Source: an uncultured Gammaproteobacteria bacterium
Lineage (GTDB): Bacteria > Patescibacteriota > Microgenomatia > Woykebacterales > RBG-16-39-9b
Length of the DNA: 64,000 bases
Assembly: GCA_965231125.1 (NCBI GenBank)
Contig: OZ246414.1
Coordinates: 81,739-145,738 of the forward strand
Direction of reading: 5' to 3'
The position numbers were made by a program, and so were the translations under genes. Below, in pieces: positions 7,566 to 50,753 of the stretch. Every line of letters begins with the position of its first letter. Position 1 is the stretch's first letter. Under the pieces are notes generated by a model that saw nothing but the letters and a program-made list of their open reading frames with translations, was not told the origin of the DNA and ran no database searches.

Positions 7566-9350
7566 TTAGCGAGATTCGCTTTTAAGTTGGGTGAGTTGGA
7601 GTGAAAGATCACGAAATTGTTTAGTTAAATTTTGTATCTTAGTTTCTTGTGAAACAGCTTCCGCTTGCTTGATTTCTAGTCCCAGCTTGCGCAGTTTCGT
7701 TCGTAAGTTTAACTCTTTGATTCGGCTCATGCAAGAGGAGATTTCTTTTTCTGAGCTTTCCGGGGAACCCTCTATCTCTTCACCAAGGTCATACAATATC
7801 GACTCGTCGTACAAAGGAAGAAGGCTTTCTGGAACTTGATTAGAAAAAGTTTTTAATTTTAGCCGACCTTCACTTTTAACTTGGTTTTTAATAAGCTTGA
7901 ATAAAGATTTTGTTTCTTCTTTATAGAAAAATTCTTCGGACAATTCTGCAGGTAAAACTCCGGTCTGTAAAACTAGCACCAGCAAATATTTTTCTAAGAT
8001 ATCTATCCTACTGCTTTTGGCGGCAGGGGTCTGTTCCACGACAGCCTGTTCAGTGTAACCGGCCGTGGTAACCGCTGTCCTTGGCAAGTATTTTTTCAAA
8101 TCGGCTCTTACTGCCTCTTCACTAACATCCAAAAGAGCGGCTATTTTTTGAATGTAATGGTCGCGACTAATTTCGTCGGCGATTTTCGCAATAAAAGGCA
8201 GAACTTCTTTTGAGATTTGCCGTTTACCTTCCGCTTCAGTTAGGTTAGATTGTCGAGCGGCCACGCTAATAACGAAATCGTAAACTGGTACAGCCTTTTT
8301 TATTCTCTCCTTCCAGACAGTTGGGTTTTTCCGAATTAAAAGATCTGGGTCTTTATCTTCGCCGAGTTCAATAACTTTGACAGAAAATCCTGCCTCTTCA
8401 GCAAGTTCAATTCCTCTTTTGGCGGCGGAACCGCCGGCAATATCCACGTCAAACCCAAATAACAGTTTATCGGCGGTTCTTCTTAAAATAGTAAGCTGCT
8501 TTTCTGTCAAAGCAGTTCCCAAGGGCGCAACCGTGTTGGTAACTCCAACTTGGTGGGAAGAAATAACGTCCAGGTTTCCTTCAACCAAAATCGCCGTCTT
8601 TTGCCGGCTTATTTCCCCTTTGGCTAGATCGATACCATAAAGGGAATTACTTTTGTTAAACACGATGCTATCGGGGGAATTTAAATATTTTGGCTCGCGC
8701 GAACCAAGAGCTCTACCAGAAAAAGCAACTACCCGTCCTTGGGAATCTTTAATCGGGAACATCACCCGACCTTTAAACCTGTCAAAATTTTTATTGCCGT
8801 CACCGGAAACGCTCACCCCAGCTGCTCCCAGATCTTCTTTCGAAAAACCTTTTTTAAAGAAAAAACGCGTCGCCAAATCTTGCCTTTCCGGGGCAAAACC
8901 GAGTTGAAATTTTTTTATTGAGGGGTCCGAGATTTTTCTCGCGTGCAGGTATCCAAGGGCCGCTTTTCCCACCTCATGCTTTGTTAGAAGGAAATTGTAA
9001 AGCTCGGCCGCGAGTTTGTTTATCGAAAATATCAGTTCTCTTCTCTTCTCAATTCCGCTCGGTTTATACTCCTTCAGTTGCACACCGGCTCGGGCGGCAA
9101 GTTTCCTAATCGCCTCCCCGAACTCTACACCATCTGCTCTTTTTACAAAAGCAAAAACATCTCCGCCCTCCCCGCAACCAAAACATTTAAAAATTTGCCT
9201 GTCGGCCGAAACCATAAAGGAGGGGGTCTTTTCAGCATGAAAAGGGCACAGTGCCTTGTAGTTGCGCCCGGCTTTTTTCAAAGATACATACTCGCCAATT
9301 AAAGCAACAATATCTACCTTACGTTTTATCTCTTCTATCTGATTATCCAT
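7566..9350 (-). CDS. dnaG: DNA primase DnaG
   Basis: Zn-ribbon [16 protein letters not shown] and TOPRIM EGNLDV. Start set at ATG 9350 (MDNQIEEIK) because the longer ORF runs through the tRNA-Ser gene. Confidence 0.9.
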
Positions 9351-10716: not shown

Positions 10717-10783
10717 GTTTTTGCCTTTCAGCTTACTCTCTGGTAAAATTATACGCGTTTTTGAGGTAAAAAAGTAAATTCTT

Positions 10784-10859
10784 GCCCCCGTAGCTCAGTG
10801 GATAGAGCGCAACGTTGCGGACGTTGAGGCCGGAGGTTCGAATCCTCTCGGGGGCACCA
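10784..10859 (+). tRNA. tRNA-Arg (anticodon GCG)
   Basis: gcccccg ta gctc agtggata gagc g caacg tt-GCG-ga cgttg ... ggttcgaatcc ... cgggggc a cca. Confidence 0.85.
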
Positions 10860-10950: not shown

Positions 10951-10958
10951 CTAATATT

Positions 10959-11029
10959 GTCCCAGTAGCTCAGTGGAAAGATCGCTACGCGCTCTGCGAC
11001 CACTTCGTAGTCTAAAAGCGCAAAAACAT
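10959..11029 (+). pseudogene. tRNA-like 5' fragment fused to the dispersed repeat (not a functional tRNA)
   Basis: gtcccagtagctcagtggaaagatcgc mimics the acceptor and D-arm of the adjacent tRNA-Arg(CCG) (gtccctgtggctcaatggatagagcac). It continues as acgcgctctgcgacc... with no T-arm. Confidence 0.45.
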
Positions 11030-26364: not shown

Positions 26365-26431
26365 GGCAGGTGTATTTAAATTCTATCCTTTGATAGCTTT
26401 AAAAACAATCCTTATCAAGAAGGTGTCCTTA

Positions 26432-26537
26432 GCTAGCCATTAAGATGGCTAGCACAGGATTCGGGAGTACCCGAATCACTTGGATTTGGTTACGGAGAAT
26501 CCTTAGTCCAAAGGACGCGGGACACTTTAAGTGTCCC
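26432..26537. repeat. hairpin cluster containing the left copy of the 33-bp inverted repeat
   Basis: Four consecutive hairpins: 26432-26453 (9-bp perfect stem), 26456-26503 (aggattc/gaatcct outer stem), 26506-26516, 26519-26537 (gggacac/gtgtccc). The 33-mer 26465-26497 is the reverse complement of 33337-33369 (32/33). Confidence 0.6.
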
Positions 26538-26549
26538 ATAGCCAATGTA

Positions 26550-26558
26550 TGCTATAAT
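26550..26558 (+). promoter_or_regulatory. extended -10 promoter TGcTATAAT for the GC-rich lipoprotein gene
   Basis: TG 26550-26551, TATAAT 26553-26558, about 52 nt upstream of ATG 26611. Confidence 0.45.
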
Positions 26559-26610
26559 ATGGTGCAAAACTAGCTCTCAAACAAAACCATACTTCAGAAG
26601 GAGGAGAGAC

Positions 26611-27501
26611 ATGAAAAGGCTGCTGCCACTGGCAGCGATAACGCTTTTGGTTGTTCTGGCTTACGCTTGCGGAGCTAAGGCCAGTACGCTAAAGAGCAAC
26701 ACTAACGCAGCTTCTGGCCTAGAAGCACAAATAACGCCTTGGGAAAAAGCTCAAGACGTGGCGAATGTTTCGCCAGAGATCACCAAAGCAGAGCTTGGTG
26801 ATGGAGCAGAGCTTGCAAACGAAATTTCGTTTGCAACTCTACGTCCGTTTTACCTAGCTCAATTCACGGGACTATCCTACGACTCCAATTACCAGTGGTC
26901 CGATTGGAGTTCCGATCCGCAAGGACAGCAGTTGGCCAGTGAAATCGAGCAAGAAGGGGTGGCGAGTAAACAAGAAACGCTGGACGGTTTGTACGCATCT
27001 AGTTTCATCCGCTACCATACCGGTACACTGAGCTGGGATGGGACTTCGCTTGGTGCTTGCCCACCAGGACCGCAGCATTTGGTGATTATCACCACAATCG
27101 TGTTCGGGCAAGCCGAAGGGGCCGCTTCCTTCTTCAACAATATTGTTCTACCGGAAGACGACGGTCTGAAGGGCCAGGTGGAGGCTCACCCTACTAACGG
27201 TACCACCGGGTTCGCTTGGTTCGACGAGCAAGAGAAGCAAAACACTTGTCTCTTGCCGGTCCAAAACGATGGGATGGTGGAGACTCACTACATAACCTAC
27301 CCAAGAAAGCAGAGTATTGCCTGGGTAGTCACTGGTACTTTTGTGATCAGAGTGGTAGAGACACTCGGCACATCAACAACAGCCAATCTAACTACCAACA
27401 CTGGTGAGTCCTTTAATCCAGACCCGAACCACTCTGCTGGCAATTACGCTAGCGATCAGGAAACGGCACTGAGATCGGCTTTACCGGAATATTTCCAGTA
27501 A
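26611..27501 (+). CDS. GC-rich putative lipoprotein (296 aa, unknown function)
   Basis: ATG 26611 with GAAGGAGGAG SD. MKRLLPLAAITLLVVLAYAC is lipobox-like. The upstream-extended ORF start at 26545 is unlikely. Confidence 0.55.
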   Translation: MKRLLPLAAITLLVVLAYACGAKASTLKSNTNAASGLEAQITPWEKAQDVANVSPEITKAELGDGAELANEISFATLRPFYLAQFTGLSYDSNYQWSDWSSDPQGQQLASEIEQEGVASKQETLDGLYASSFIRYHTGTLSWDGTSLGACPPGPQHLVIITTIVFGQAEGAASFFNNIVLPEDDGLKGQVEAHPTNGTTGFAWFDEQEKQNTCLLPVQNDGMVETHYITYPRKQSIAWVVTGTFVIRVVETLGTSTTANLTTNTGESFNPDPNHSAGNYASDQETALRSALPEYFQ

Positions 27502-27504
27502 CCC

Positions 27505-27537
27505 AAAGCGGTTCGAAATCACATCGAACCGCTTTTT
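27505..27537 (+). terminator. rho-independent terminator of the lipoprotein gene
   Basis: aaagcggttcga / tcgaaccgcttt 12-bp stem plus T-run. Confidence 0.7.
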
Positions 27538-27539
27538 CA

Positions 27540-27568
27540 TTGACAAATAAACTCGGCATCTATAAAAT
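27540..27568 (+). promoter_or_regulatory. TTGACA-N17-TAAAAT promoter, -10 ends 7 nt before the ATG (leaderless-type)
   Basis: TTGACA 27540-27545, TAAAAT 27563-27568, ATG 27576, no SD. Confidence 0.55.
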
Positions 27569-27575
27569 TGAATTA

Positions 27576-29270
27576 ATGTCTCTGCCCAAAAGATTAATTT
27601 TAATCTTTACTGTAATTTTAATTGCGATTTCCTTTTTTAGCTTAATTCCCCTAACGCAAGCCGCCTCTTCGGCTAGCAAACCTCAGAATAATCAACCGGT
27701 AAGTTCTAATAAAATCCAACCGATACCGGCTTCTTCAAACACAAATTTTCAGTACATTCCGACACCAAATGGAAATTACCAAAACCAAGAAGTAGCCCTT
27801 GGACCTGTTGGCGATTGGTTTGCTAATCGATTTCACGACGCAATCACCTTTTTCAGTGACCCTCTAGCTCCAATAGTAAAAGCGGCTCTCTTCTGGACTC
27901 AAGACGCTGCCTACCAACAGGCGGAAGGTTGTCCTTTTGAGGATGCCCAGTGCCATAATGATCAACGCCAACAATACCTTGCCGGAACTGATATTGCCCA
28001 CCTTTCTCACCCTGGAGCGCTGGATTACGCTTCCACCCTTTTGAGTAGTAGTTTAGATCTTCCGGTCCCCCTCGACTCAAGTCAATACTTCGCCTCGATT
28101 AATCCTTTTAGCCAGGCCCATGCATCCGGGGTTGGGGACCTCGCTCAAGACCCCATCCTTCACGTCTGGCAAAGAGTCCGAAATGTTGCCTACGCTGCCA
28201 GTGCGGTGATAATGATAATTTTGGGCTTTATGATAATGCTGCGTTGGAAACTAGACCCCCGAACCTCTGTGACAATTGCAAATTCCCTGCCCCGAATAAT
28301 TGTTGCTTTACTTTTAATTACCTTTAGCCTGGCTATTGCCGGTTTAATGATTGACCTCGCCAGAATAGTCACCAACCTTGCCACTGATTTGATTCCAATT
28401 ACGCTGCGCGGGGCGATGGGGTTAGCAGTTCTCGGTTTTTTTGCAGTGGGATCTTTGGTCCTGCTTTTTACTGCTGGCAGTACTATTGCTGCGGGCCCGG
28501 CTGGCCTCAGTATCGCCTTCATTACAGTTCTTCTGCTGTCGTTGATTTTGGTGATAATAATACTAGTTGTCTTCATTGTCCTTATTTATAAAATCTTAAT
28601 GCGCTATATAACCTTCATCGTTTTGACAATTTTTGCGCCTTTCTTTTTCTTAATTGGGGCCATTCCGGGGCTGGAAGGCGTAACCGCCAGCTGGTTTAAA
28701 CGCCAAATTGCCGCCCTTCTGGCAATACCGGCCATTGCCCTGATGGTTAATCTTTCCTTTTGGATTGGTTTTTCTGGTGCTGGCAATCTACCCAATCCCT
28801 GGCAGACAGGACCGTTACCAGTTGGTATCGTTGGAAATATTTTAAACTGGACAATTCTTTCCCCGATTGTCGGGCTTGGACTTTTCTTCTTCGCCACAAA
28901 AATGCCGGATATTATTGATGAGATGTTGCAAGTTAAACCTCTCGGTGCCAGAGCCGGAATCGGCCCCGGTGCTATACTCGGCGCCCCGATCGCTGCCTTT
29001 GGAACGCTCGGAACTGTTAACAGAGGTTTTCGAACCTTCCAACAAGGAGGTATGCTTTACGGCGCTTTACAAAATGATTCCCTTCTTGGCCGCTTATACC
29101 GACCTGTGGCACGTTTTGGTAGTTCTTTCCGTAAAAACCCAAAACCAGCCTTTCCACCTGCAGCTGGTGACGCGTGGGGTCAGGGTCTAAGAGATTTTGA
29201 ACGAAGCCGACAGGCTCAAGGACAACCTAGACAGGAAGGTGAACCACCCGACAGACCCCCAGGGACATAG
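27576..29270 (+). CDS. polytopic membrane protein, VirB6/TrbL-like (type IV secretion channel component analogue)
   Basis: 564 aa from MSLPKRLILIF. Signal/TM, an extracellular region of about 150 aa, then about 7 TM segments and a Pro/Gly/Arg-rich tail. Assignment rests on architecture and context only. Confidence 0.5.
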   Translation: MSLPKRLILIFTVILIAISFFSLIPLTQAASSASKPQNNQPVSSNKIQPIPASSNTNFQYIPTPNGNYQNQEVALGPVGDWFANRFHDAITFFSDPLAPIVKAALFWTQDAAYQQAEGCPFEDAQCHNDQRQQYLAGTDIAHLSHPGALDYASTLLSSSLDLPVPLDSSQYFASINPFSQAHASGVGDLAQDPILHVWQRVRNVAYAASAVIMIILGFMIMLRWKLDPRTSVTIANSLPRIIVALLLITFSLAIAGLMIDLARIVTNLATDLIPITLRGAMGLAVLGFFAVGSLVLLFTAGSTIAAGPAGLSIAFITVLLLSLILVIIILVVFIVLIYKILMRYITFIVLTIFAPFFFLIGAIPGLEGVTASWFKRQIAALLAIPAIALMVNLSFWIGFSGAGNLPNPWQTGPLPVGIVGNILNWTILSPIVGLGLFFFATKMPDIIDEMLQVKPLGARAGIGPGAILGAPIAAFGTLGTVNRGFRTFQQGGMLYGALQNDSLLGRLYRPVARFGSSFRKNPKPAFPPAAGDAWGQGLRDFERSRQAQGQPRQEGEPPDRPPGT

Positions 29271-29353
29271 CTTCGCCAGCAATACCACTAGTTGCACCAT
29301 CCTGATATAATTCAAGTCACGGGAAATACTGACCTGACGCTAAAGGAGAGGTT

Positions 29354-29542
29354 ATGGTAAAAATAATATCCTTCCTATTAGGTCTCCAACGAGGTGGTTT
29401 ACTTTGGTCCCTGCTGGCTCAGCCTGATGGAGTTCTTCGCAGGTTAGCCAAATCGCTTCTGCGAATTGGTAGTTTTCGAAGAAAACGACAGATACCAGCA
29501 ATACCGCCAGACCCTTCACAGACACGCAGGATCCGAAACTAG
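29354..29542 (+). CDS. possible small basic protein (62 aa)
   Basis: AAAGGAGAGG SD 2-3 nt from the ATG and an extended -10 TGaTATAAT at 29312-29320. No homology recognised, so it could be non-coding. Confidence 0.3.
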   Translation: MVKIISFLLGLQRGGLLWSLLAQPDGVLRRLAKSLLRIGSFRRKRQIPAIPPDPSQTRRIRN

Positions 29543-29603
29543 GCAAAAGAAAAGGGCCGGTTCGTACATTAAGCATTTCTGCTTATTGCACTTACCGGCC
29601 CTT
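29543..29603 (-). terminator. terminator of the 1111-aa gene
   Basis: On the minus strand, aagggccggt / accggccctt 10-bp stem (32-nt loop with inner agca/tgct stem) followed by ttcttttg. Confidence 0.5.
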
Positions 29604-29609
29604 CGCAAC

Positions 29610-32600
29610 CTAAGCGGCTACAATCACAAATCCGCTATTGGGTTCTGGCACTGCGCTCGTAACTAGGTTGTTGTGGCCCATATAGACCATCTTGATGTAC
29701 CTGATGTAACGCTGCTTCTCCTCCTCTCCTATGTTCCTAATCGCTTCCCGTAGAACGTTATTGATTTGGTCCCAGCGATATTTGTCGACGATCATTTCCG
29801 CAAGCTTCATAGAGTATCGGGAGTCAATTTTTGCCCAGCGGGCAATAGTGACAGTCAGGCGATCAACGTCCATCTCCCTCATCGCCTTGCCTCTCTGGAC
29901 TCCATCTTGCTCTTTGAACCTAGAGAGCCACCAACTATTACCCTTTAGGCTCTTGGCGCTTTCCTTAACGAACTCGAGTTCGTCTGTCTCACTCCAGTGA
30001 CCAAGCTCCCGCGCCCTGGCTTTACCGAGACTGTTGTCGAACACTCGGTTCCACCAAACCCATTCCCCATCTCGAACAAATTTGGACTCTGACTCAGCAT
30101 CGTCCCCGATTCGGAAGGGGTAACCCTCGCTGATCCAGGAACCGTAGGTGCCTCCGGAGAAAGCGTGGGCCCGACCCAAAAGGGTGAGCTCCATCTCCCT
30201 CTCTTCCTGGTAAGCGATCGCTGGTCTGCGCAGATCCCAAATCATTCGCTCCATACCGATCCGGCGACCACCAGGAAGCCCGAGATCGAATCTGCCCTTC
30301 GGAATTACGATGGTGGGTAGGCCTTCGGTGTTCCGCCGGACTACGGGGACCACCTGCTGCACCCGGTTAGTCATCGCTTCTTGCAAAGCGTACTGAACCC
30401 TAGCCCGCTTTGGCTCCTCGGGCTGGTGAGCCCACATTGCGTACATGAAGTTACGCGCTGCAGTGGCGTTGTCGTAGTTCACCCGAATGAAGCTATCATA
30501 GCCGTACGTATTTGGGTTGGACAAGCGCACGTTAAGCACCGCCAACGCATTCATCTGACCTAGAATCGCCTCGTTCTGCAGCCAAACGGTGATAGGGTCT
30601 CGGACGGCAAACTCGATGGTACGGGTCCAATCGTCCTCGTCTCGGTAGTTGCGTACCCTGCTGGTGAACTCCTTAACTAGCGTGTCAAAGTCGGGCATCG
30701 CCCCATCACCAGCCGCCGAGTTTAGCCCTCGCTCGCGCTTGAGCTGATCCAAGGCGACTGCCATTGCCTCGGCGTACAAAGTTGCCTGAGCACCGTCGTG
30801 AGGCATCTTCTGCCAGGGTTCCTTGAAGAACCAGGCCCAGTCAAGTAGCGAGCGACGAAGCTCAACCCTTTCCTGGGACACCTCCACGAAACGCTCAAAT
30901 ATCTCGTTTCCGAGAACGTACGCTTCCCTTTCGTCCCGAGTCGGTTCTTTGATCTCCGAGAAGACAGCCTGCCATTCCTCATGAACAAGCTTGTCCGGTA
31001 TCTCTTCTGGACTAGGGATCGGCGCAAAAGCCTCCCCCCGATGCAGTTTGCCCAGAAGGTGGGCCTGGAACCGAGCGCACCGATGCAGAATCATGTACCG
31101 CCGGTCGCAGGTATAATCGATGCTCTCCCACTCACCACCGAAGTTGTTCTGGACATACCGAGCTACGTCCGCATCTTCCATATTCCAACCCTCACGTTTG
31201 GTCCGCATAGAGCGGGCCATCTGCCAGAATTGAATACGGTGCAGACGCTTTCTGCGTCGCTCGATATTTTCCGCCCTGTAGCGGAAGGTGGAGTGATCCA
31301 CCACTGGTTCCCAGCTACCGTAGGAAGGCTGGTAAACTAGCTTCCCTGTCTCCTTATCAACCTTGGATTTACCAGGACGGTATACCCAAGTCACGGTGGA
31401 TGGTTGCTCCACGTACACCGCGAGCTGCACGAGCTCCTTGAGAGCCTGTGCCTGGCTGACTGGATCCGAGGTTTGCGCCCCAAAAATATCCGCCAGAAGC
31501 CAAGGCTCGTTCATCTGCTCGCTTGGATACGAACGGTCCATGTTTTGGTCCACGAAGCTATCCTGATCGCGGAGCCAACGTGCCCACCATTTCTTTAGGG
31601 CTTTGCGACCCTTTGTCTTTTCGAGCTCTATCATCTCTTCTTCGGTGGGTATGCGGAATCCGCTAACTACCTCACCAGTTTTAGGATCGCGTTTCTGCTT
31701 CCGACGGACCGTTTCTTCGAAGTATTTCCACGTCGCCCCGTAACCGAAGTACTCGGTTCCATCCTCATCCGTATAGTAGAGGATTTTCTCCGAACACACT
31801 TTGTGAGCGAGCATGGTGCGGCCTTTTATGTTCAGGTCGCCCACGTCGATTTCGTACTTCTCAGTGTGCGGATTGTAGTGCAGGCCTTCGGGAAATTCCT
31901 GAAAGACCCCTTCACGAACGTTTGCACCATTGCGGTAATACTCCGCTTCCACGCGGCTGCGGAGTGCCTCTTTTTCAGCTTCAGACAGCTCTTCGAGCTC
32001 CCCGGTTTCGGGGTTCTCCACGAAGTAATACCACTGATCTGGTTCCTTCGGGCGAAGCTTCAGCCGAAGCGCGCGGCGGTAGACGTTGTCTTTCTCCCGC
32101 CATTCATCCATTGGTGCGTTGGGTTTGTGCGGTGGAGGGACTTTATTCAACCCTTCGTTGTTCACTGGAAGGTCTCCAGCTCCAACAGCAGGGTAGAACA
32201 CTCGATAGCGAGTAAAGTCCTCTCTCTTCGCGATATCCTCCGCGTGCAACTTGCGCATAACTTCCAGCCGGGAAGAGCCAGGGTTCTTTTTGAGAGCCCG
32301 ACGCATCCGGTGGTAGCTACGCGACACACGCCGAATTTCCCGGTGGTACATCCAGTTAGGATAGCGTCCACCGGGACCAATGTCTTGACGAACTCTAGCG
32401 TGGTTCAGCTCGGGCGAAAGAACGAACATGTTCGTGTCGATACGAACCTGCCCAAGAGAAACCTCAGAGTTCTCTATTTCTTGTTGAAGTTTCTGTACTT
32501 CTTCCCACATGTGCTTTTGTTTTACGGTGTCCGAGATTCCAAACGAGAGAGTGCTGATGAGAAACGGGTTTTTTCCCTTACGCTCAATAGCGTAGCATAG

Positions 32601-32945
32601 AATCGGTTCCCGCTCTCCCATTGGGAATTCGGGCTTTCCGTCTCTGCCAACCCGCCATACCCCGTCCCTTGGTACAACGACTCGCTCCTTAGGCTTGGCT
32701 GTAACCACTTCCATGAAGAAGCGGCGGCCACCCCTCTGCCCGTTGATCTGGAAACCTTGTTCCGAATACTGCGTCTCAGCCAGAGCTTTGAGCTCCTGCT
32801 CTAGCGATGGGAGACCAGCGTATGCCCCCGATCCATATTCGGCTGGGGTTATTACCAGATCCGGTATTCTACCGAACCTAGTTCCGGGAAGAGCTTCCTC
32901 GAACTCTTCGCCATAACCGTCACCGTCCCCATTACCATTTGTCAT
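29610..32945 (-). CDS. large GC-rich orphan protein (1111 aa, no recognisable domains)
   Basis: Uninterrupted ORF. Best start is ATG 32945 (MTNGNGDGDGYGEEF) with GAGGAGGA 8 nt upstream. No signal peptide or TM. Arg/Glu/Trp-rich. Confidence 0.7.
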   Translation of the reverse strand: MTNGNGDGDGYGEEFEEALPGTRFGRIPDLVITPAEYGSGAYAGLPSLEQELKALAETQYSEQGFQINGQRGGRRFFMEVVTAKPKERVVVPRDGVWRVGRDGKPEFPMGEREPILCYAIERKGKNPFLISTLSFGISDTVKQKHMWEEVQKLQQEIENSEVSLGQVRIDTNMFVLSPELNHARVRQDIGPGGRYPNWMYHREIRRVSRSYHRMRRALKKNPGSSRLEVMRKLHAEDIAKREDFTRYRVFYPAVGAGDLPVNNEGLNKVPPPHKPNAPMDEWREKDNVYRRALRLKLRPKEPDQWYYFVENPETGELEELSEAEKEALRSRVEAEYYRNGANVREGVFQEFPEGLHYNPHTEKYEIDVGDLNIKGRTMLAHKVCSEKILYYTDEDGTEYFGYGATWKYFEETVRRKQKRDPKTGEVVSGFRIPTEEEMIELEKTKGRKALKKWWARWLRDQDSFVDQNMDRSYPSEQMNEPWLLADIFGAQTSDPVSQAQALKELVQLAVYVEQPSTVTWVYRPGKSKVDKETGKLVYQPSYGSWEPVVDHSTFRYRAENIERRRKRLHRIQFWQMARSMRTKREGWNMEDADVARYVQNNFGGEWESIDYTCDRRYMILHRCARFQAHLLGKLHRGEAFAPIPSPEEIPDKLVHEEWQAVFSEIKEPTRDEREAYVLGNEIFERFVEVSQERVELRRSLLDWAWFFKEPWQKMPHDGAQATLYAEAMAVALDQLKRERGLNSAAGDGAMPDFDTLVKEFTSRVRNYRDEDDWTRTIEFAVRDPITVWLQNEAILGQMNALAVLNVRLSNPNTYGYDSFIRVNYDNATAARNFMYAMWAHQPEEPKRARVQYALQEAMTNRVQQVVPVVRRNTEGLPTIVIPKGRFDLGLPGGRRIGMERMIWDLRRPAIAYQEEREMELTLLGRAHAFSGGTYGSWISEGYPFRIGDDAESESKFVRDGEWVWWNRVFDNSLGKARARELGHWSETDELEFVKESAKSLKGNSWWLSRFKEQDGVQRGKAMREMDVDRLTVTIARWAKIDSRYSMKLAEMIVDKYRWDQINNVLREAIRNIGEEEKQRYIRYIKMVYMGHNNLVTSAVPEPNSGFVIVAA

Positions 32946-33086
32946 TTGTGTTTCCTCCTCGCTGTTGAACCACCTCGACTTAGTCGAGGGTGCTGACCGG
33001 CAAACTTTCTTTGTGAGAACTGTTTCCCACTTTGGTGTTTGCTGGATCAGCAGCAACACCAAGGGGCGGCCGAAGGCCAGTTTTAA

Positions 33087-33113
33087 ATTATAAGACGCGG
33101 GACATATGTCCAA
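33087..33113 (-). promoter_or_regulatory. candidate promoter (TTGGAC-N15-TATAAT) overlapping palindrome ggacatatgtcc
   Basis: Minus-strand TATAAT is the reverse complement of 33087-33092. TTGGAC is the reverse complement of 33108-33113. The spacer is short (15 nt). Confidence 0.3.
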
Positions 33114-33204
33114 AACACTAGAATCTTACATCCTAAATCTGACATCCATCCGTCCCTCGGTGTTACCTATACTAAGGAGGGGTCCTGGTTTTCACCGGGA
33201 CTTC

Positions 33205-33233
33205 GACTTGTCTAACGACAAGTCTTGTTTTTT
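33205..33233 (+). terminator. plus-strand terminator-like hairpin with no obvious upstream plus-strand gene
   Basis: gacttgtc-taac-gacaagtc perfect 8-bp stem followed by ttgtttttt. A second hairpin plus T-rich tract lies at 33260-33290. Confidence 0.45.
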
Positions 33234-33336
33234 GCTTGTTACCTCAATTTTTCGGCGTACTACAGGTTTAATCCTGTAGTTCTTTTGATCTTTATTCGTT
33301 TTTTAAGGTGCACATTAGCTTTTCGAAAATAGATCG

Positions 33337-33399
33337 CTCCGTAACCAAATCCAAGTGATTTGGGTACTCTCGCGTTCTGTGCTTTAAAAAAGCTAAGGG
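33337..33399. repeat. right copy of the inverted repeat (33-mer plus extended imperfect arm)
   Basis: ctccgtaaccaaatccaagtgatttgggtactc (33337-33369) is the reverse complement of 26465-26497 with 1 mismatch. The arm continues ...gttctgtgct..agctaaggg, matching 26427-26457. Confidence 0.65.
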
Positions 33400-33817
33400 C
33401 TCTGGGTGACAAATTTCTTATCAACCAGAGCCCACCTTCGGGGTCCTATGAAGGGACACCTCAACTCGGAGGTGGCTCTGGATTATTTAGTTTAATTTTA
33501 AGTTCGCCCTTACTCATTTTTTCTAGCCTCTACTGACTGGCCGAATTTTAGCATAACTTAGCTTAAATGTCAACTATAAGTCATTTTGTAACTTCGAAAC
33601 CTGCGAGCTCTTGGTTTCTCAGGTACTCTCACGTCTCGCGCTAGGCGTCTTAACGCCTAGCTAAGAGCGCATCGGTTTTTATTCGCGCAGTACGATACAG
33701 TTTGACTCGGTTGCTTTTAGCCTCCCCATGAGCCATAATAATCCCTACAATAGTCGTAAAAAGCTATTTTTCGGCGAAGGATCAGCGAAGCGAGCCGAAG
33801 TATTGTAACCAAAAGTT

Positions 33818-47425: not shown

Positions 47426-47492
47426 TAACCTAGAGTTGGTTAGTGAAAAAGTCCCTAGTTCGAGAAAATAGTTGTAAACTATTCTCGAACGC

Positions 47493-47543
47493 AGGATTCA
47501 CAGTAGCTGGCTCGCCAAGCGAGGTATAAGCTACGAGAATCCT
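47493..47543. repeat. hairpin with the same outer stem (aggattc...gagaatcct) as 26456-26503 but a different interior
   Basis: Outer stem 47493-47499 / 47537-47543. Inner stems gtagc/gctac and ctcgc/gcgag. Lies 5 nt upstream of the -35. Confidence 0.5.
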
Positions 47544-47547
47544 ATAG

Positions 47548-47576
47548 TTGACAAATCCTTTAAGTTGTGTTAAAAT
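47548..47576 (+). promoter_or_regulatory. TTGACA-N17-TAAAAT promoter of the 47.6-48.5 kb GC-rich unit
   Basis: TTGACA 47548-47553, TAAAAT 47571-47576. Confidence 0.5.
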
Positions 47577-47582
47577 ACACCC

Positions 47583-47825
47583 ATTAACAATTGAAAATAG
47601 ATCGCTAACGCGCTCTGCGTCGCTAGCGCTCCTAATGGTTACAAGGTAAAAACTTTTAAAGGCACTTTGTAACTGGAGTTGAAGTTATAGCTAACTGTCA
47701 TTACGGAAACGTCCTGAAGTCTAGAACAATTCGAGTCCAGTTACCAGGTGCCTTTGTGTATCTAGGCGGTACGTCTTGCTGACCCGGCAAGCTATCGTTA
47801 AACAAATTATGGGTATGGAGGAACG
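47583..47825 (+). promoter_or_regulatory. long (~245 nt) structured 5' leader containing a copy of the dispersed repeat
   Basis: Repeat copy 47594-47638. Long-range stem aaaggcac..taactgga (47658-47677) / tccagtta..gtgccttt (47735-47754). SD atGGAGGa 47816-47822. Confidence 0.4.
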
Positions 47826-48546: not shown

Positions 48547-50753
48547 GGCCACGCGGAAACCATGATGGAATCATCCTTTTTTAGTCCGTTAGGACGCAGA
48601 GCGCGAAGCGATCTATTTGGTAACTTCTGCCAAAGATCTTCGGTTATGTACGGCATGAAGGGGTGGAGTAGTCGCAAAGATTCTTCAAGGACTTTTTCCA
48701 AAACCGGCTGAGCTTCGTCTCGTCGGGATTTTGAACTTTCAATATATTTATCGGCAAAGCGGTGCCAGACGAAATCGTAAAGCTCTCCGACCGCCTGACC
48801 AAAACGATAATTCTCGATTGCTTTGGTTACAATTTCTCTTGTTTTCTCCAATTCCTCCAAAATCCATTTGTCATCCAGGTGAGTGGGTGTAGGGTGTAGG
48901 GTATAGGGTTTAGGGTTTTTTGATTCGGGTTCATTCGAGTTATTATTCGCGTCCATTAGAATATACCGGCCGATGTTCCAGAGTTTATTAGTGAAATTGC
49001 GCATTCCTTTTATTTTATGTTCGCCAAGGTTAGCATCATTGCCTGGACCAGTTCCGAAGACGAGGGCCATCCGGACTGCGTCCGCACCGTATTTTTCCGC
49101 AACATCCAGCGGATCAATGACATTATTTTTACTCTTGCTCATTTTTTGACCCTTTTCGTCGCGAACCAGGCCATGTAAGTAAACCGTTTCAAAAGGGACT
49201 TTACCGGTCACATAAAGACCAAGCATGATCATGCGCGCGACCCAGAAGAAAAGGATATCGTAGCCAGTTTCCATTACAGAGGTTGGGTAAAATTTCTTAA
49301 AATCGGCTTCATCTTTTTGTCCGTAACCCAAAGTGGTAAACGGCCATTGCCCCGAGGAAAACCAAGTATCGAGGGTGTCCGGATCCTGTTCAAACTTGGT
49401 TGAGTCGCAATTTGCGCACCTAGTCGGGGGTTCAACTGAGACAAACTCCCCATTTTTCATTTTGCATTCTTCATTCTTCATTTCCTGACAGTAATAAACT
49501 GGCAGGCGGTGGCTCCACCACAGTTGCCGGGATATACACCAATCGTGAATATTCTCCATCCAATTAAAATAAATTTTTTCGAAACGGGGTGGAATGATTT
49601 TGATTTTGTTACTCTTAACCGCTGCCAGGGCGTCTTTAGCCAAATTCTTGCCGCTCTTACCGGTTTTGTTGACAGCAACAAACCATTGTTTGGAAACTAG
49701 AGGCTCGACGACAGTATCAGAGCGTTCGCAGACACCGACACTAGTCTTGTGATGCTGCGTTTTTTCCAACAGGTCCAGTTTTTCCAGATCGGTAACGATT
49801 TGTTTGCGGGCGGCGTATTTATCCAAACCAGAGTACTTACCTGCCTCTTTGGTCATTTTGTCGTCAAAACCGATGACTTGAATTTGGGCTAGTGAGTGAC
49901 GCTGTCCGACTTCATAATCGTTCGGATCGTGTGCTGGTGTTATCTTCACCGCTCCACTACCGAACTTTGGGTCAACGTAGGAATCTTTAATAATAGGAAT
50001 CTCCCGGTTCATCAACGGTAGGATGGCTGCCTTTCCAACTAAAGTCTTGTAACGTTTATCGCCCGGGTTAACCGCGACCGCTGTGTCGCCCAGCATTGTT
50101 TCCGGTCGGCTCGTGGCTACAGTTACAGTTTCTTTAGAATTCTTAACTGGATAACGGATAAACCAAAGGTTCGATTCTTTTTCTTTGTGAAGCACTTCGA
50201 GATCGGAAAGTACAGTCGCGCAGCGCGGACACCAATTAACCATTCGGCTGCCGCGGTAAATTAACCCGTCGTCATAAAGGTCTTTGAAGGTTTGGTAAAC
50301 TACTTTGGAGATTTCTGGATCAAGAGTAAATTTTTCGCGAGACCAATCTAAGCTAAATCCCATTGCCCGTAGTTGGTCGTACATTTGCTTTTTATTTTCT
50401 TGGGTGAATGCGTAAGTTTGCTTGAAGAATTCTTCCCGGCCAAGGTGGTGGCGAGTCTTACCTTGCCTTTCCAAAACCTCCCGTTCGTAAACGACTTGGG
50501 TTTGGATGCCGGCGTGATCTGCTCCTGGCAGCCACAAAGTCGAATCCCCAAGCATCCGGTGGTAGCGGATTAAAATATCCTCGATGACGTACATGGCGTG
50601 GCCGATGTGGAGCCGACCGTTGGCGTTTGGCGGAGGTAAAATAATTGAATAAGGTTTGCCTTTAGGATTGGTCTCTGGCTTGAAAAACTCCCCCTTTTCC
50701 CAAAGGGAATACCATTTGCTTTCAACTTGTTTATGCTCGTAAACTTTTTCCAT
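48540..50753 (-). CDS. valS: valine--tRNA ligase (short form without C-terminal coiled coil)
   Basis: 737 aa. PPPNANGRLHIGHA (HIGH), KMSKSKNN (KMSKS). Carries the repeat-encoded insert NRSLRALRPNGLKK near the C-terminus. Confidence 0.95.
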   Translation of the reverse strand: MEKVYEHKQVESKWYSLWEKGEFFKPETNPKGKPYSIILPPPNANGRLHIGHAMYVIEDILIRYHRMLGDSTLWLPGADHAGIQTQVVYEREVLERQGKTRHHLGREEFFKQTYAFTQENKKQMYDQLRAMGFSLDWSREKFTLDPEISKVVYQTFKDLYDDGLIYRGSRMVNWCPRCATVLSDLEVLHKEKESNLWFIRYPVKNSKETVTVATSRPETMLGDTAVAVNPGDKRYKTLVGKAAILPLMNREIPIIKDSYVDPKFGSGAVKITPAHDPNDYEVGQRHSLAQIQVIGFDDKMTKEAGKYSGLDKYAARKQIVTDLEKLDLLEKTQHHKTSVGVCERSDTVVEPLVSKQWFVAVNKTGKSGKNLAKDALAAVKSNKIKIIPPRFEKIYFNWMENIHDWCISRQLWWSHRLPVYYCQEMKNEECKMKNGEFVSVEPPTRCANCDSTKFEQDPDTLDTWFSSGQWPFTTLGYGQKDEADFKKFYPTSVMETGYDILFFWVARMIMLGLYVTGKVPFETVYLHGLVRDEKGQKMSKSKNNVIDPLDVAEKYGADAVRMALVFGTGPGNDANLGEHKIKGMRNFTNKLWNIGRYILMDANNNSNEPESKNPKPYTLHPTPTHLDDKWILEELEKTREIVTKAIENYRFGQAVGELYDFVWHRFADKYIESSKSRRDEAQPVLEKVLEESLRLLHPFMPYITEDLWQKLPNRSLRALRPNGLKKDDSIMVSAWPK

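Follow-up and report, generated by a model that had tools for sequence, protein, structure and literature searches.

A pair of inverted repeats in a secretion-like locus of a Woykebacteria-like genome as two copies of a dispersed, probably insertional, hairpin repeat

Introduction

A locus resembling a type IV secretion system (T4SS), in a 64,000-nucleotide stretch of a Woykebacteria-like genome (GenBank assembly GCA_965231125.1, contig OZ246414.1, positions 81,739 to 145,738; the whole stretch is called the window below), contains two copies of a short sequence in opposite orientation. They bracket a 6.9-kb block with a lipoprotein gene, a VirB6-like gene and a large gene for a protein of 1111 amino acids (aa). 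The question raised by this pair is whether it marks the ends of a segment that can move or invert, as an earlier note on this DNA suggested, whether it forms a regulatory or structured-RNA module between divergent promoters, the alternative offered there, or whether each arm arrived on its own. The analysis described here makes it probable that the two arms are two copies of a dispersed, self-folding intergenic insertion repeat and not the ends of the 6.9-kb block. The best explanation of the repeat itself, which we consider likely to be correct, is a non-autonomous, hairpin-structured insertion family of the REP (repetitive extragenic palindromic) or IS200 type, abundant in Woykebacteria-like genomes of the Candidate Phyla Radiation (CPR).

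The two arms and the copies in the window

The inverted 33-mers (26465-26497 on the + strand, 33337-33369 on the - strand) are identical at 32 of 33 positions, and none of 100 dinucleotide shuffles of the window matched the 33-mer with three or fewer mismatches, which bears out the earlier view that the repeat is beyond chance. A repeat search extends the pair to 47 nucleotides (nt) at 89% identity (26451-26497 and 33337-33383), with 24 nt as the longest exact identity between the arms. Both arms do occupy spacers between divergently oriented genes, with each arm pointing toward a gene inside the block: arm A, on the + strand, is upstream of the lipoprotein gene (ATG at 26611), and arm B, on the - strand, is upstream of the 1111-aa gene (ATG at 32945). 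Each arm is a complete repeat unit of 65-75 nt, and two finer features described earlier find their place within it. The weaker outer homology (CCTTAGC..AGCACAG) is the hairpin P1 plus the linker of the unit, and the self-folding core (CCRAATC/GATTTGG) is its hairpin P3. The pair is not unique, since further copies of the family, missed by the earlier note, lie within the same 64 kb. The P1 and P2 stems differ between A and B; the arms resemble a 33-nt inverted repeat because their P3 hairpins are of one sequence type and the copies are, by coincidence, oppositely oriented at a distance of 6.8 kb.

A covariance model of the unit, run with filters off, detects at least seven copies in the window; its E-values are rough, and the loci from other assemblies discussed below (numbered L001 onward) were ascertained by sequence pattern. 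The copies are listed here together with a tentative further unit and a promoter-like box near copy A.

26430 to 26503, + strand: copy A, full unit from TAG to CT, with a predicted fold (model match 26426-26508, 57.1 bits, E=2.4e-13).
33331 to 33396, - strand: copy B, full unit, with a predicted fold (model match 33326-33399, 64.8 bits, E=1.8e-15).
33578 to 33663, - strand: copy C, diverged full unit (model match 33573-33667, 31.4 bits, E=3e-6).
47456 to 47543, + strand: copy D, diverged subfamily CACAGUAGCU...UAAGCUACGAG (model match 47452-47548, 18.6 bits, E=0.011).
10974 to 11018, - strand: mini copy, P1 and P2 closed by a short loop, without P3 (22.6 bits, E=8e-4).
48582 to 48614, + strand: mini copy, UAGUCC-GUUA-GGAC-GCAG-AGCGC-GAA-GCGAUCU (match 48578-48619, 19.9 bits, E=0.0045).
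47594 to 47638, - strand: mini copy, weak in score and clear by eye (14.1 bits, E=0.19).
26504 to 26541, + strand: tentative degenerate short unit in tandem with A, seen by eye and unscored by the model.
26550 to 26558, + strand: extended -10-like box TGcTATAAT upstream of the lipoprotein gene (consensus match only).

Weaker model matches (29548-29627, 27505-27553 and others) were treated as chance, the first of them covering the end of the large gene and an ordinary terminator.

In copy A, P1 is GCUAGCCAU-UAAG-AUGGCUAGC, P2 is AGGAUUC/GAAUCCU around the internal loop GGGA/GGA, and P3 is GUA-C-CCGAAUC-ACUUG-GAUUUGG-U-UAC. The degenerate unit behind it reads UUAG-UCC-AAA-GGA-CGC, followed by the hairpin GGGACAC/GUGUCCC and AUAG. 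Together they occupy the space between a weak promoter-like sequence, TTGATA-17-TATCAA (26390-26418), and the extended -10-like box of the lipoprotein gene, which lies about 50 nt downstream of A and is followed by a Shine-Dalgarno sequence (GGAGGAG at 26600) ahead of the ATG. Copy B has the P3 module of A, with P1 GCUUU-UUU-AAAGC and P2 AGAACGC/GCGAUCU, the latter with an A.A mismatch. Copy C lies 200 nt upstream of B and its 3' end directly meets TATAG-TTGACA; its P1 and that of A have a common frame with two compensatory pair changes. Copy D directly precedes TTGACA-17-TAAAAT, and its subfamily recurs in L033, L011 and L064. The mini copies of the window have no P3.

Architecture and covariation

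The unit can be written 5'-TAG-(P1 hairpin)-GCAG-(P2 5' strand)-GRGA-GUA-C-(P3, variable)-U-UAC-GGA-(P2 3' strand ending CT)-3', in which helix P2 (7 bp) encloses a purine-rich internal loop, GRGA/GGA, and the hairpin P3. Full copies measure 65-95 nt and mini copies about 35-45 nt. The P1 sequence is wholly different from copy to copy, apart from the common frame of A and C. In an alignment of 76 sequences, standard pairs fill 84.6% of the proposed-pair cells, versus 32-41% after a shift of the 3' partners by 1-3 columns; P2 is paired in 94.5% and the lower part of P3 in 94.9%, with many double changes and with three or four pair types at most of the variable positions in P2 and P3. Single-sequence folds of the arms agree with this comparative architecture.

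The ends of the unit are sharp, with information content close to zero outside (yt)TAG...CT followed by AT(w). At the 5' end the frequencies are T 88%, A 96% and G 92%, and TAG is preceded by T in 59% of cases and by G in just 24%. The 3' flank has A in 85% and T in 79%, then W; leaving out stop-codon contexts, the 5' flank shows no specificity. Terminal symmetry is limited to the three nucleotides TAG/CTA. Units occur singly or as head-to-tail tandems, and inverted pairs occur kilobases apart around ordinary genes, as in L043, where one brackets rpsF-ssb.

Several known structures were tried on the unit and rejected. As an intrinsic terminator it fails in that only some copies are followed by T-rich sequence, and in the cases examined this sequence encodes, on its complementary strand, the final codons (mostly Lys) and the stop of the opposite gene. 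Its variable outer helix P2 (AGGAUUC, AGAACGC, AGCAUUC and others) does not fit the RYYYAAC...GTTRRRY cores of integron attC sites, and no cassette arrays were seen. Readings of the loop, by eye, as a hammerhead, K-turn, sarcin-ricin motif or CsrA site either put it in a register that misfits the covarying P2 or show partial resemblance, and a single-stranded-DNA promoter misfits the outer helix, which is not conserved, and the -10 sequence, which lies outside the stems.

Distribution and gene context

A strict pattern for the conserved loop, searched in 185,579 species representatives, gave two loci in a Candidatus Woykebacteria genome; four further matches in unrelated phyla (L005, L007, L009, L010) failed the covariance model and were treated as chance. 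The same pattern had no match in a viral contig collection. A slightly looser pattern retrieved 91 stretches of metagenome contigs, several per long contig, with 86 distinct matches, 81 of which pair at five or more of the seven P2 positions, and the covariance model found 116 matches in 620 kb of related contigs. Copy density is very uneven among relatives, with 0-1 copies in the 12.6-22 kb available for each of L102-L105. Rfam 15 holds no family for the repeat, either for the whole window at gathering thresholds or for both spacers at E<=10, and these scans yielded only tRNAs, transfer-messenger RNA and noise. Among the papers searched, none ties CPR or Woykebacteria to REP elements or to miniature inverted-repeat transposable elements (MITEs).

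The repeat occurs at many unrelated intergenic sites, in the manner of the generic REP-type element that the earlier note had named as grounds for giving up its own reading. The neighbours of copies include def, fmt, rpsF, ssb, lysS, sufB and the genes for DNA ligase, RNase Y, pilins and glycosyltransferases. In co-directional spacers 21 copies are sense and 28 antisense, with 24 more in divergent and 9 in convergent spacers.

Evidence for insertion

The site of copy B can be compared directly with an empty one. B lies in the leader of the large gene, for which the following features are needed.

33545 to 33573, - strand: promoter-like TTGACA-17-TAAAAT with TG ahead of the -10 and 11 of 12 consensus matches; the site is conserved in both L001 and L102.
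33324 to 33440, - strand: host leader hairpin CGAAGGU-GGGCUCUGG...CAGAGCCC-(B)-AUUUUCG, its 3' strand split by B between 33397 and 33330.

This leader can be aligned between the window, L001 (46% identity for the large protein) and L102, from a Woykebacteria relative. In both the window and L001, B stands between CAGAGCCC and ATTTTCG, although the P1 and P3 stems of the two are unrelated; in L102 CAGAGCCC is followed by ATTTTCG with nothing between. The empty site of L102 forms one continuous hairpin of about 23 bp, CGAAGGUGGGCUCUGG...CAGAGCCCAUUUUCG. A start predicted from the promoter-like sequence would give a leader of about 590 nt that includes B, some 145 nt downstream. The minimum-energy fold of the window sequence keeps the outer helix CGAAGGU:AUUUUCG and puts B into two side branches, from which we infer that B may be tolerated in the leader because it folds on itself. 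Copy C is present in the window and at the same position in L102 (15257-15346, E=5e-8), and is decayed in L001.

Nested copies give a second kind of evidence. Mini copies lie inside P3 of full copies at L055:4683-4805 and L043:4135-4248, and removal of the insert from L055 leaves the usual host sequence, AAATC^ATTAAGCG (the caret marks the junction); nested copy-like insertions occur at L011:5143-5292 too. At all informative sites the insertion is just 5' of A(T/A), and nothing is duplicated. A model with TA duplication fits less well: it predicts an extra T at B and at the nested L055 site, and the empty and host sequences lack it.

The third kind comes from split features. Of 100 unique copies, 14 have a terminal CTA that, read on the opposite strand, is the TAG stop of an open reading frame of at least 80 codons. 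When TAG...CT is excised in silico, a stop in frame (T^AA, T^GA or T^AG) reappears at 13 of these 14 stop-supplying copies, versus 29 of 86 other copies (Fisher p=3.5e-5). The same operation restores perfect promoters in L089 (TTGACA-17-GATAAT) and L099 (TTGACA-18-GATAAT); a -35 search after excision found a perfect TTGACA at only 2 of 21 sites, many of the others being tandem or complex. Finally, identical P3 types recur with different P1 and P2 stems and different flanks: CCCCGACCUUGGUCGGGG is present in five loci, and the exact type of B in L057.

We infer from these data that copies arise by insertion without terminal inverted repeats or visible target duplication, immediately 5' of A-T-W. 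This is the geometry of hairpin-recognising single-strand elements (the HUH/Y1 type of IS200/IS605, or of REP elements and their transposases). Copies would survive where they are harmless or where the split feature is regenerated. At a stop codon, the host T and the AG of the element would make a new TAG; at a -10 box, the ...TGCT end and a following ATAAT would give TGCTATAAT; and in the stem of a structured leader the self-folded copy would become a side branch.

Weighing the explanations

A number of points weigh against an insertional origin. The model without duplication is founded on few sites, namely B, two nested copies and two promoters, and a TA duplication at insertion sites keeps a small probability. 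Copies at orthologous positions in diverged genomes (B/B', C and the L102 copy, and the same gene ends in L011/L024 and L059/L076) fit long retention or a host function as well as they fit mobility. No Y1/HUH transposase was found in the 808 kb of collected DNA by tblastn with IS608 TnpA or with a narrow IS608-like Y1 profile (nothing at E<0.4), which is a weak negative, and none was seen among the most frequent neighbour families, a listing from which singletons could escape. The gene calls behind the context statistics are simple longest-open-reading-frame approximations. The invariance of GRGAGUACC/GUUACGGAG in the 76-copy alignment was imposed by the search pattern; in copies found independently of the pattern, by the covariance model, both segments vary too, and the basal pairs of the P3 stem change in a compensatory way from GUA/UAC to ACA/UGU, AUA/UAU or GUAG/CUAC. 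Lastly, the ratio of G.U to A.C is 16:1 in sense-upstream copies versus 15:11 in antisense copies (p=0.014), and this dependence of wobble bias on the direction of transcription hints that selection acts at the level of RNA as well.

The alternative that survives best, although we regard it as unlikely, is that the repeat is a host "punctuation" element (a stabilising or processing hairpin, a terminator or insulator, or a carrier of an extended -10 box) that spreads by duplication or gene conversion, is maintained by selection and is not transposable. An exact TATAAT directly follows 16 of the 81 copies, and in 11 of these 16 an ATG 6-9 nt further on opens a reading frame of at least 110 codons without a Shine-Dalgarno sequence. 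Because P2 usually ends in ...TGC, the junction reads TGCTATAAT, an extended -10 of the form TGnTATAAT. The retention of orthologous copies with compensatory changes and the orientation-dependent wobble bias would also suit such a host function. Nesting, an exactly matching empty site, and stops and promoters that reappear when copies are excised are nevertheless signatures of insertion, the repeat has no fixed orientation to transcription, and most copies lack a following promoter or U tract. This alternative is possibly compatible with the insertion repeat, through domestication.

A dedicated cis-regulatory RNA (a riboswitch, for instance, or a leader site bound by a common regulator) that would control the lipoprotein/VirB6-like operon together with the large gene is a good deal less probable still. 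Its attraction is that both arms are sense and upstream of genes, that B would lie in a transcribed leader below a strong predicted promoter, and that the structure covaries, with G.U strongly preferred over A.C in sense-upstream copies. The absence of a fixed orientation (the element is antisense as often as sense) and the diversity of neighbours, among them unrelated housekeeping genes, argue that the repeat is not a gene-specific regulatory RNA. Copy A is upstream of TGcTATAAT and so perhaps outside the lipoprotein mRNA, B is missing from the orthologous leader of L102, the L103 and L104 spacers have no scored copy, and no Rfam model matches even at E<=10. The structured module that the earlier note envisaged between divergent promoters is therefore sound in its anatomy and not in the locus-specific regulatory role that it implied.

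The remaining proposal, a mobile or invertible segment, can be judged against four relatives (L102-L105) that were found through VirB6-like homologues of 34-44% identity, one of them named Candidatus Woykebacteria. All four have the order hydrolase (-), a spacer of about 100 nt, VirB6-like gene (+), large gene (-), a long spacer and PrgI (+)...VirB4, recF, dnaN, and L001 agrees over the part that its contig covers; the four relatives keep this order and orientation without A, and without B where the leader is readable. The rise in GC inside the block that the earlier note described is real; it is uneven, with 0.51 for the lipoprotein gene, 0.47 for the VirB6-like gene and 0.54 for the large gene, against 0.44 for the window. 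This richness belongs to the large gene, which has a GC of 0.49-0.58 in relatives versus 0.43-0.45 for their loci, with or without flanking copies. L002, a JGI contig and the one other assembly that spans both arms, has the arrangement of the window.

That the arms are the termini of a non-autonomous mobile segment, or of one inverted by a recombinase or RecA, carrying the lipoprotein, VirB6-like and large genes, thus has hardly any likelihood: the inverted arms with a core identical at 32 of 33 positions, the higher GC inside and a lipoprotein gene that relatives lack speak for it, but the arms belong to a dispersed family, the VirB6-like and large genes are placed and oriented alike in L001 and L102-L105, the high GC of the large gene is present in relatives without the repeats, the exact identity between the arms is short, and the proteins scanned in and around the block (the window scan was not exhaustive) have no recombinase domains. 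The bracketing of the block is incidental, and the genes between A and B are not a unit.

Comparison with known elements

Correia elements (Correia repeat enclosed elements, CREE) of Neisseria have terminal inverted repeats of about 26 bp and duplicate TA. They and other promoter-creating MITEs are small, non-autonomous and RNA-folding, insert into AT-rich intergenic DNA, and make or restore -10 boxes and stop codons. The repeat described here is likewise small, non-autonomous and RNA-folding, with -10 boxes and stop codons created or restored at its junctions; unlike Correia elements and other MITEs of the DDE type (such as IS630-derived ones), which have terminal inverted repeats of at least about 10-15 bp, its symmetry is only TAG/CTA, and its four informative sites are better explained without duplication. 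The pneumococcal BOX, RUP and SPRITE elements are modular, with a variable number of subunits (boxA, boxB and boxC modules in BOX), and are transcribed, highly structured and located near promoters. Modularity and structure are common to them and the present repeat, which differs in its nested hairpins and has no sequence or architectural relationship to them.

REP elements, and the REPINs in which two inverted REPs are joined, are mobilised by Y1 HUH transposases called RAYTs (REP-associated tyrosine transposases). Their features include many of those found here: short extragenic hairpin repeats in tens to hundreds of copies with compensatory stem changes, no long terminal inverted repeats, frequent abutment to stop codons, largely vertical inheritance and lineage-specific expansion (PMC3116915, PMC3337134, PMC3686654). 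To the conserved (G/T/C)TAG or GT[AG]G-type sequence at the 5' foot of a REP hairpin, the (y)(t)TAG start of the present copies corresponds in part. Unlike a REPIN, the present unit arranges its two unequal hairpins directly, P1 first and then P2 with P3 inside it, and often occurs in head-to-tail tandems. Unlike REP elements, it was found without a RAYT gene in the 808 kb of collected DNA, and its host has a CPR genome of about 0.9 Mb.

Elements of the IS200/IS605 family have derivatives without an open reading frame, known as palindrome-associated transposable elements (PATEs). The present repeat resembles the ends of IS200/IS605 elements in its imperfect hairpins near the ends, the lack of terminal inverted repeats and visible target duplication, a strand-specific tolerance of G.T and, possibly, a short fixed target on one side (here A-T-W, on the 3' side) (PMC3201880, PMC5027513). 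It departs from them in that this target has just 2-3 nt in place of a tetra- or pentanucleotide, the hairpins extend right to the termini, and no TnpA or TnpB was detected. A bias of orientation with respect to replication fits 5 of the 7 window copies, which is not significant.

Neighbouring genes and further observations

The GC-rich lipoprotein gene (26611-27501, + strand), which copy A precedes, is missing from the four relatives, where the VirB6-like gene directly follows the hydrolase. It is a lineage-specific gain. The large gene, which has no Pfam match and encodes 881-1111 aa, always has the VirB6-like gene on one side and PrgI on the other in these T4SS-like loci, and is GC-rich everywhere.

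Window 29610 to 32945, - strand: large gene of the window.
L102 11889 to 14657: large gene of this relative.
L103 2685 to 5408: the same.
L104 12038 to 14683: the same.
L105 12133 to 15057: the same.

The 1111-aa protein has no match in Pfam, NCBIfam or PDB sequences, and a search of 5.8 billion proteins returned only itself and the one relative of 46% identity. BLASTP against its positional analogue in L102 was not significant; the gene is either extremely fast-evolving or has been replaced. Its leader (32945-33537, - strand), about 590 nt long, is conserved in structure. Besides the long hairpin CGAAGGUGGGCUCUGG...CAGAGCCCAUUUUCG it has a competing segment farther upstream, CCAGAGCC, and further covarying hairpins that adjoin the Shine-Dalgarno sequence. 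To judge from this arrangement, it looks like an attenuator or antiterminator switch. Just upstream of the promoter is a small open reading frame of 28 aa, MAHGEAKSNRVKLYRTARIKTDALLARR (33736-33650, - strand), which ends inside copy C. It is conserved in L001 (about 9255-9323) and in L102 (about 15406-15347, - strand) as MAEVEVKINRLKMYRNHPNEIP and MVDSRFEINRLILYRKVHE, and the common motif of the three, INR[LV]x[LM]YR, has no family match.

Other observations concern the surroundings of copies. In L013, L016, L020, L021, L023, L056, L068, L085, L089, L099 and others, the ATG stands 6-9 nt past TATAAT without a Shine-Dalgarno sequence, in many cases for housekeeping genes; this suggests, from start-site spacing, that leaderless mRNAs may be common in the Woykebacteria-like lineage. 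At about 1381 of L093, on the opposite strand, a copy is directly followed by a gene whose product has an N-terminus like that of type IV pilins, MKISNFKDKGFTLIELL, and four copy-adjacent genes match N_methyl (PF07963), the prepilin-type N-terminal methylation motif. At about 330-700 of L006, and also in L050, L079 and L084, a copy comes just after a small opposite-strand gene of the Xis/MerR-like helix-turn-helix kind. Copies of this type are followed by a diverged duplicate, about 55 nt long, of the 3' end of that gene, which a simple insertion model does not explain.

Within the window, a tRNA-Arg-like 5'-half fragment (10957-11018, 85% identical to 10782-10814) abuts the mini copy at 10974-11018 on the opposite strand and is flanked by intact tRNA genes; it may be the remnant of a disrupted or duplicated tRNA gene. 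A direct repeat of 300 nt (1056-1355 and 1999-2298, 81% identity, 943 nt apart) is unrelated to the hairpin repeat, and further short repeated segments (D9, D15, D19) come after it. Two Logan contigs from independent assemblies, L003 and L004, include A and break off within the loop of B's P3 hairpin (their position 1 corresponds to about 33357 of the window); the repeat, or its hairpin, breaks short-read assemblies.

Significance

On this evidence, the T4SS-like locus is neither a mobile cassette nor a phase-variable one, and the repeat is unfit for delimiting a genomic island. As the repeat supplies stop codons and extended -10 boxes, sits in leader RNAs and interrupts assemblies, it bears on annotation, on the prediction of promoters and leaderless mRNAs, and on the question of which mobile elements persist in streamlined genomes. 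The covariance model is a ready marker for the Woykebacteria-like lineage.

CPR genomes, at about 0.9 Mb, are thought to be highly streamlined, and at one copy per 8-9 kb the repeat would make up about 1% of such a genome, a share extrapolated from 7-8 copies in 64 kb. A more far-reaching version, offered tentatively and with a rather low expectation that it is right, is that a structure-specific CPR enzyme, as yet unrecognised, moves the family and that the repeat has been domesticated as genome punctuation, able to occupy stop codons, -10 boxes and RNA stems because it provides TAG stops and TGnTATAAT for leaderless genes and folds away in RNA. If true, such a punctuation cassette would represent a new partnership between mobile element and host in ultra-small genomes.

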